From the IMG/VR virus record IMGVR_UViG_2671180411_000011: a stretch of 4,525 bases of DNA; one strand, written 5' to 3'. This document shows, piece after piece, positions 182 to 733 of this stretch. Numbering within the stretch: the stretch's first letter is position 1; each line of letters starts with the position of its first letter. The notes beneath the pieces are model-generated. The model did not search any database. It was not told where the DNA came from and saw only the letters and a list, made by a program, of their open reading frames with translations. The DNA is from a virus (taxonomy: Duplodnaviria; Heunggongvirae; Uroviricota; Caudoviricetes). Both the position numbers and the translations under genes were made by a program.

Positions 182-370
182 AAAAGTGCAATAGATCGCA
201 TCACTTTTATGTCTGGTTTTGCTGATGCGTTAATTCAGGTTGGATGGCTGGTCGAAAATGACGGAGGGCTTTCTCTACCTAACTTTGAACGTCATAACGG
301 AAAAAGCTCTAAAAAAAACGGGCGGTTACAAACGAGCGAGTAACAAAAATACGCGAACTGAAACGAAAAG

Positions 371-389
371 GTAACGCTGCCAGCGTTAC
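371..389. repeat. Second copy of the same dyad site, GTAACGC-N5-GCGTTAC (iteron-like)
   Basis: Arms 371..377 and 383..389 are identical to the arms at 161..181; inner bases also pair (GTAACGCTG c CAGCGTTAC). Further half-site copies: AGCGTTAC at 405..412, near-copy GCGGTTACA at 322..330, GTAAC at 338..342. Confidence 0.6.
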
Positions 390-414
390 ACAAACGGATC
401 AAAAAGCGTTACCA

Positions 415-432
415 GAGGAAGAGGAAGAGGAA
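415..432. repeat. Tandem hexanucleotide repeat (GAGGAA)x3 encoding an acidic EEEEEE linker
   Basis: Three perfect consecutive GAGGAA units at 415..432 followed by GA; read in frame 1 as a Glu run. Confidence 0.8.
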
Positions 433-733
433 GATCTAAATACTGATCTCCCCCTCGCCAAAAACGAGCGTCTAAAAAATTCGAGCCGGAGGCTATTGAG
501 CTGCCCGATTGGTTGCCGGAAACACTCTGGCATGAGTGGGTCCGGTTCAGACAGGCATTGCGAAAACCGATTCGAACGGAGCAGGGCGCTAACGGGGCGA
601 TACGGGAACTGGAAAAATTCCGTCAGCAGGGTTTTACACCTGAGCAGGTGATTCGACACAGCATCGCCAATGAATACCAGGGCCTGTTCGCGCCGAAAGG
701 TGTTCGGCCTGAGACGTTGCTCCGACAGGTTAA

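Follow-up and report, generated by a model that had tools for sequence, protein, structure and literature searches.

A replication-initiator remnant with three lesions in a Rac-like cryptic prophage of Shigella sonnei

Phage lambda encodes the replication initiator O and the helicase loader P, and its origin lies inside the initiator gene. The arrangement of an initiator gene followed by a helicase-loader gene is shared by the locus described here. Its order (Cro-like, YdaT, initiator, DnaC-like YdaV, DUF977) is also like that of the Rac-prophage module ydaS/ydaT - ydaU - ydaV of E. coli, from which the present copy differs in being a pseudogene. Pseudogenes caused by insertion sequences (IS) are well documented in Shigella. 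IS600 is among the five IS that have expanded in all Shigella, and in S. sonnei 50% of the pseudogenes are due to IS, while a further 12% carry an IS together with another inactivating mutation (Hawkey et al. 2020, PMC7373316).

We analyzed a stretch of 4,525 nt (the window), which is a scaffold with 263 N at 734..996. The region is, very probably, a fixed and multiply inactivated replication-initiator remnant of a Rac-like cryptic prophage of Shigella sonnei, with three independent lesions. Complete E. coli genomes contain Rac-like prophages whose replication and early region has the gene order of the window; among them, NZ_CP065613 (L001) and NZ_CP092244 (L002) served as reference loci. The whole window is the segment between two IS600 copies of the same orientation. 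This flanking pair forms a composite-transposon-like arrangement. The initiator-like gene extends up to 733, and the features are ordered as follows:

1..105, minus strand: terminal 105 nt of an IS600 element (IS3 family), ending ...GGCTACCTCA, which interrupts the initiator gene
106..733, plus strand: body of the replication-initiator pseudogene at the YdaU position, corresponding to orthologue codons 36-246 (tblastn, PHROG 2509, RefSeq)
734..996: scaffold gap of 263 N, covering the initiator 3' end and the first ~240 nt of ydaV, as judged from L001 and sibling assemblies
997..1503, plus strand: 3' part of ydaV, the DnaC-like helicase-loader gene, in frame (PF01695 IstB_IS21, PF00308)
downstream of ydaV: DUF977, a hypothetical gene, QueH, a Hok-family toxin, a Rem-like gene and DUF1367, in this order
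4454..4525, minus strand: second IS600 copy, oriented like the first and represented by its other end (TGAGGTGTACTGG...); this copy truncates the DUF1367 gene

The intact orthologue

In L001 and L002 the gene between ydaT and ydaV is a single ORF of 789 nt encoding 262 aa (97.5-98% DNA identity for the intact coding sequence). RefSeq names the orthologue 'hypothetical protein' or, in one case, 'phage replication initiator YdaU family protein'. Over residues 1-262, its entire length, the intact protein matched the profile of PHROG 2509 'replication initiation protein' (E=1.2e-89). A weaker match was to PHROG 678 'replication initiation O-like' (E=7e-26). Neither the intact orthologue nor an 87-aa ORF of the window matched any Pfam family at E<=0.01, and in NCBIfam the sole match of the intact orthologue, to the DnaT C-terminus, scored 16 bits and stayed below the cut-off of 201. 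Membership of the DnaT or DUF1376 families is not claimed, since the NCBIfam match was sub-threshold and Pfam gave none. The protein is a putative initiator on the basis of its PHROG and RefSeq family names.

In other loci this position is occupied by 285-aa YdaU-type proteins with the K-12-type YdaU domain DUF1376 (PF07120), whereas this domain is absent from the 262-aa orthologue (Pfam, E<=0.01). Judged by these profiles, the 262-aa orthologue is a different initiator allele or family (PHROG 2509) than the 285-aa YdaU type. By sequence it is not a member of the lambda O family proper. The intact form dominates its own family, with clusters of 1,716, 613, 169 and 107 members.

A 21-bp palindrome, TGTAACGC-N3-5-GCGTTACA, was found in three copies, two in the window (161..181 and 370..390, vs 0.01 expected by chance) and one at 3865..3885 of L001. 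Spacings between the copies are ~192 and ~207 nt. Two of them fall within the gene and the other just before the initiator start codon, and half-sites AGCGTTAC are found nearby. Copy 1 is split from copies 2 and 3 by the IS600 insertion. These repeats in and just before the gene of the 262-aa orthologue recall the iterons inside the lambda O gene. They could be binding sites for the initiator or a repressor and might mark a putative origin that, like that of lambda, is located within the initiator gene.

Three lesions in the initiator gene

The interruption of the gene by IS600 and the reading frames downstream of it were resolved by comparison with the intact orthologue and with sibling loci of the S. 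sonnei type. The features of the gene in the window are:

80..343, plus strand: chimeric 87-aa ORF, made of 9 IS600-end codons, initiator codons 36-105 and an 8-residue out-of-frame tail, NGRLQTSE
106..108, plus strand: 3-bp target-site duplication GGT; in siblings the second copy, like nt 1-108 of the gene, is found beyond the IS
98..316: tblastn segment, position mod 3 = 2
313..about 448: tblastn segment, position mod 3 = 1
447..731: tblastn segment, position mod 3 = 0
311..318, plus strand: A8 run, lesion 2, a frame-shifting +2 expansion of the wild-type A6 (AAA AAA = KK)
415..434, plus strand: hexamer repeat (GAGGAA)3, encoding the acidic stretch EEEEEE; in-frame length variation, not a lesion
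449..455, plus strand: remaining TCCCCCT copy, lesion 3, junction of a 10-bp deletion between two 7-bp direct repeats (alignments)
474..479, plus strand: A6 run, wild type and not a lesion, identical in intact orthologues (AAA AAA = KK of ...RASKKFEPE...)

Bases 1..105 were 100% identical to transposase-annotated DNA in >3,000 E. coli genomes and include the start of the transposase orfA on the minus strand. The window contains the two ends of the element only. The full IS600 of 1,263 nt was read from sibling L011 and was 99.8% identical to RefSeq copies of 'IS3-like element IS600 family transposase'. It has the ends TGAGGT...ACCTCA, is flanked by the 3-bp duplication GGT, and ORFs of 100 aa (HTH_Tnp_1) and 272 aa (rve) were called in it. 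With junctions marked by a slash, L011 reads ...GGGAAGGT/TGAGGTGTACTGG...IS600...CCTCA/GGTTATTCGC, where the intact gene reads GGGAAGGTTATTCGC; with the complete terminal motifs the sibling junctions are ...GGGAAGGT/TGAGGT...IS600...ACCTCA/GGTTATTCG.... IS600 is a simple insertion after nt 108 of the gene. It cuts off the promoter, the start codon and the first 36 codons and alone makes the gene a pseudogene.

The GTG at 80 sits within the IS600 end, and 80..343 is not a native gene start. The out-of-frame tail of the 87-aa ORF arises because of the A8 run. An earlier note on this DNA, made from the window alone, had overlooked both the IS600 disruption at 1..105 and the origin of the GTG at 80. 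At the other end of the window the second IS600 creates a 117-aa DUF1367::IS600 fusion ORF (4147..4500), which served as a lineage marker.

When the intact 262-aa orthologue was compared with the window by tblastn, three strong segments were obtained (E 1e-63 to 1e-64), and the pseudogene body extends over three frames, 106..318, 319..448 and 449..733. The earlier note had described frame steps from 2 to 1 to 0 with the first change at the A8 run. The three-frame homology agrees with both statements, the first tblastn boundary being at ~316. The two A-runs on which that note had focused are present, and the A8 run is the longest homopolymer of the window.

The length of the first run was then read in relatives. 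In the intact gene it is A6 (AGC TCT AAA AAA CGG = S S K K R). It is A6 in the intact E. coli loci L001 and L002 and in the S. flexneri loci L022 and L023, and A8 in all S. sonnei-type siblings. A third K at this site was found in 0 of 120 homologue clusters. For the nucleotide search a 121-nt query across the A8 run was used (window 255..375), because in a 61-nt megablast query the masked run leaves flanks of 26 and 27 nt, which is below the 28-nt seed. All 15 best E. coli matches listed span 119 nt and thus have A6. A scan of GTDB species representatives for run-length variants gave two loci only, both with A6. Judging by these relatives, the change probably went from A6 to A8, although a path through A9 is conceivable. 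An A9 ancestor, as implied by the earlier repair, was judged unlikely, with KKK in none of the 120 clusters and A6 in all close intact relatives. The run had been taken for an undercalled A9, but compared to the orthologue the window carries two A too many.

The second break was placed by nucleotide alignment of the window with L001, L002 and the siblings. Between the IS junction and ydaV exactly three differences were observed, namely one SNP, the additional AA and a loss of 10 bp. The deleted bases, TCCCCCTAAA, are missing at 448/449 and comprise one copy of a TCCCCCT direct repeat. This deletion is the true site of the second frame change, as read from the alignment. In the middle frame the homology ends at ...DLNTDLPL, and it resumes in the third frame at PPRQKRASKKFEPE, which precedes the A6 run by ~25-30 nt. 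Across 446..479 both frame 1 and frame 0 are open, so that the break could not be located from the ORFs and the nearest homopolymer had been picked. The A6 run, to which the second frame change had been assigned, is unchanged. Likewise, the two breaks are not of one type in homopolymers, as had been supposed; one is an expansion from A6 to A8 and the other a deletion at a direct repeat. The loss of one unit of TCCCCCT-AAA-TCCCCCT is a classic slipped-strand deletion.

The 10-bp-deleted form was found in 0 of the 535 complete E. coli genomes that matched the segment (5,426 searched), and 533 of these 535 aligned at 80-90% identity, as expected with 10 extra bases. An insertion of the 10 bp in E. 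coli was considered and rejected, because the downstream frame of every intact homologue requires these bases. More distant homologues retain ...PLNPPRQKRAS....

Adding one A to each run, as the earlier note proposed (A9 and A7), does restore a single ORF from 80 to 733; the restored ORF, however, differs from the ancestral one. In the intact gene the corresponding stretches are ...GKSSKKRAVTNERV... (two K, A6) and ...DLPLNPPRQKRASKKFEPE..., rather than ...DLPLAKNERLKKFEPE.... Since the second break is a 10-bp deletion and not a change in the A6 run, the repaired peptide contains ...PLAKNERLKKFEPE... instead of the ancestral ...PLNPPRQKRASKKFEPE....

The (GAGGAA)n repeat at 415..434 behaves as an in-frame VNTR whose length varied among the loci. 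Three units are present in the window, 18 or 24 additional nt were seen in L008, L013, L014, L016 and L017, and one unit fewer was seen in S. flexneri L022.

Each of the three lesions suffices to prevent synthesis of the 262-aa protein. In the mechanism that we propose, besides the insertion of IS600 after nt 108 with duplication of the GGT target, slippage would have expanded A6 to A8 at 311..318, and slipped-strand mispairing at the TCCCCCT-AAA-TCCCCCT direct repeat would have removed 10 bp at 448/449. The latter two would both represent replication slippage at mutation-prone sequences. A functional initiator would then be lacking and the prophage would be unable to start its own replication, while ydaV and the downstream genes would be cut off from the early promoter by IS600.

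Close intact orthologues with a single ORF, disabling lesions and their reproducible presence across independent assemblies characterize the locus as a true pseudogene, which the earlier note had listed as one of two outcomes. The lesions were seen in all sibling assemblies examined that keep the sites and were absent from the E. coli compared. That the DnaC-like gene stays intact was borne out as well: in siblings ydaV is called as an intact gene of 248 aa (PF01695/PF00308). The scaffold gap conceals the last 16 initiator codons and the stop. Its real length is 295 nt, as read from L001 (coordinates 4637 to 4933) and sibling assemblies, and the 263 N underestimate it by 32 nt. Within the gap stretch, alignment of L001 and siblings revealed no further lesion.

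Decay of the locus in Shigella

In S. flexneri SFBU1023 (L022) and strain ECMA0423 (L023) the first run is A6 and the 10-bp unit is retained. Their initiator gene carries an independent 11-bp deletion, GGGCGCTAACG, between GGGCG direct repeats farther downstream; no other clear indel was found over ~5.1 kb aligned to L001. Both also have a separate IS600 in the DUF1367 gene, ~61 nt from the S. sonnei site and with the target-site duplication GCT. The initiator and DUF1367 genes of these two strains and of S. sonnei have undergone convergent decay.

Further frameshift alleles occur among the protein clusters of other lineages, namely A7 in P0079 (first run), A5 in P0074 and P0084 (second run) and C4 instead of C5 in either TCCCCCT copy in P0082, P0089, P0099 and P0102. 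Errors are possible in some of these variant alleles, whose sources are short read-assembled contigs. The homopolymers and the TCCCCCT repeat are recurrent hot spots of mutation or error.

The rest of the window (3,457 nt) differs from E. coli L001 by 4 SNPs and 0 indels. The SNPs, at window positions 1661, 2046, 2427 and 4273, are the only differences in this part, and all three that are coding are non-synonymous (M to I in DUF977, I to V in a 137-aa ORF, R to C in DUF1367). By our own arithmetic, two indels in 629 nt vs none in 3,457 nt have a probability of ~0.02 under a uniform rate, and because of this unevenness a purely neutral, uniform decay is not demonstrated.

The concentration of lesions might be read as adaptive, if an active initiator on a prophage that cannot excise were harmful and had been silenced repeatedly. 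Three lesions in a gene of 789 nt and none in the 3.4 kb downstream (ydaV, DUF977, QueH, hok, Rem) would fit such selection, as would the independent 11-bp deletion in the same gene of SFBU1023 and ECMA0423 and the A7, A5 and C4 alleles of other lineages. However, all lesions lie at mutation-prone repeats or homopolymers, most family members are intact, as the large clusters indicate, and the variant alleles include the doubtful ones from short contigs. The sample is also too small for a rate test, and the neighboring DUF1367 gene was itself hit by IS600 twice, independently. We therefore regard selected silencing as unlikely. Decay without such selection remains our preferred reading, and the frameshifts would fit a neutral decay of mutation-prone repeats in a gene that had become dispensable or was already broken.

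Degradation is not confined to the initiator gene. YdaT is called with 101 aa in the S. sonnei siblings L003 and L011 vs 140 aa in E. coli L001, and a few kb upstream of the window locus these two siblings carry more IS (IS110 family and other IS3-family copies). In the S. sonnei siblings, then, the prophage seems to be in an advanced state of decay throughout.

Mutation versus sequencing error and recoding

The window is a draft scaffold with an N gap, and one A added to each run opens the frame from 80 to 733, which would fit miscalls. Undercalled homopolymers in an otherwise intact gene, with true lengths of A9 and A7, had been considered in the earlier note. The proposed check, run lengths in homologous prophages, gave A6 and A6, and the suggested lengths do not equal those of the intact relatives. 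Furthermore, positions 1..733 and 997..4525 matched at least 10 other assemblies at 100% identity and without a gap. Among them are the chromosome records CP019689 and CP022457, the former being the complete chromosome of Shigella sonnei 75/02, which was sequenced with Illumina MiSeq mate pairs (PMC5447701).

Siblings were collected by two exact look-ups. The 87-aa product, which depends on the A8 run, was found in 481 blocks of the public collection, among which are more than a dozen contigs of megabase scale; the DUF1367::IS600 fusion peptide, a marker independent of the A-run, was found in 521 blocks. Loci retrieved with the 87-aa product have A8 by construction, while those retrieved with the fusion peptide are unconditioned. 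All seven marker-only siblings that keep the region have A8 (L003, L005-L010), and all that keep the second site carry the 10-bp deletion (L003, L005-L009); in L010 this stretch was lost to a further IS rearrangement. Altogether A8 was found in 17 of 17 sibling loci carrying the gene, with no difference in run length among the assemblies, one of which is from Illumina MiSeq.

The same A8 run and 10-bp deletion are thus present in every sibling assembly examined that retains the site, which speaks against miscalls. A 10-bp deletion is no homopolymer error, the required KKK occurs in no homologue cluster, and the lack of indels in the other 3,457 nt compared to L001 gives no sign of an indel-prone assembly. 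The gene is in any case interrupted by IS600. Undercalling is consequently most improbable, and we take the A8 run and the deletion as real mutations.

Several short-read drafts (among L004, L007, L009, L015 and L018-L020) fuse the locus across IS600 to a second Rac-like prophage, which carries a 285-aa DUF1376 YdaU and ydaV. In L018 a fragment of the initiator gene is duplicated and lacks the IS junction, which may be an assembly chimera driven by repeats. In L010 (CP022459) further IS copies, at 1400..4200, take the place of the sequence from the 3' part of the initiator to the beginning of QueH.

Runs of at least eight A are slippage-prone templates, for example in IS elements and in Shigella type III secretion genes. 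Transcriptional slippage or a -1 ribosomal frameshift at the A8 run, giving a full-length or alternative initiator, could in principle correct the frame offset, for which the mRNA needs one extra A, but it is hardly conceivable here and was rejected on account of the two further lesions: the orthologues have a plain A6 in one continuous ORF and do not conserve a slippery run or a two-frame arrangement, the 10-bp deletion would persist after correction at A8, promoter, start codon and 36 codons would still be lost to IS600, and the sole available ORF start lies inside the IS end.

In annotations, 80..343 ought not to appear as a gene; the appropriate label for the locus is a prophage initiator pseudogene, disrupted by IS600 and frameshifted. 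Frame breaks beside homopolymers in a draft assembly are not necessarily miscalls; comparison with the intact orthologue relocated one lesion, reversed the sign of the other and exposed the IS insertion. The initiator of Rac-like prophages may conceivably be a preferred target of inactivation in Shigella, which could reflect selection for silencing replication in situ while the cargo is kept, although we consider this doubtful. With respect to the IS-driven pseudogenes of Hawkey et al. 2020, the gene belongs to the class with 'both IS and other inactivating mutations' (12% in S. sonnei) and is a cryptic-prophage gene, in contrast to the metabolic genes emphasized there; otherwise there is no substantial difference. 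The case is one of ordinary IS-driven genome decay in Shigella, an already known kind of feature. It matters mainly as a correction, and biologically it adds one more example to the well-documented decay of Shigella genomes by IS.
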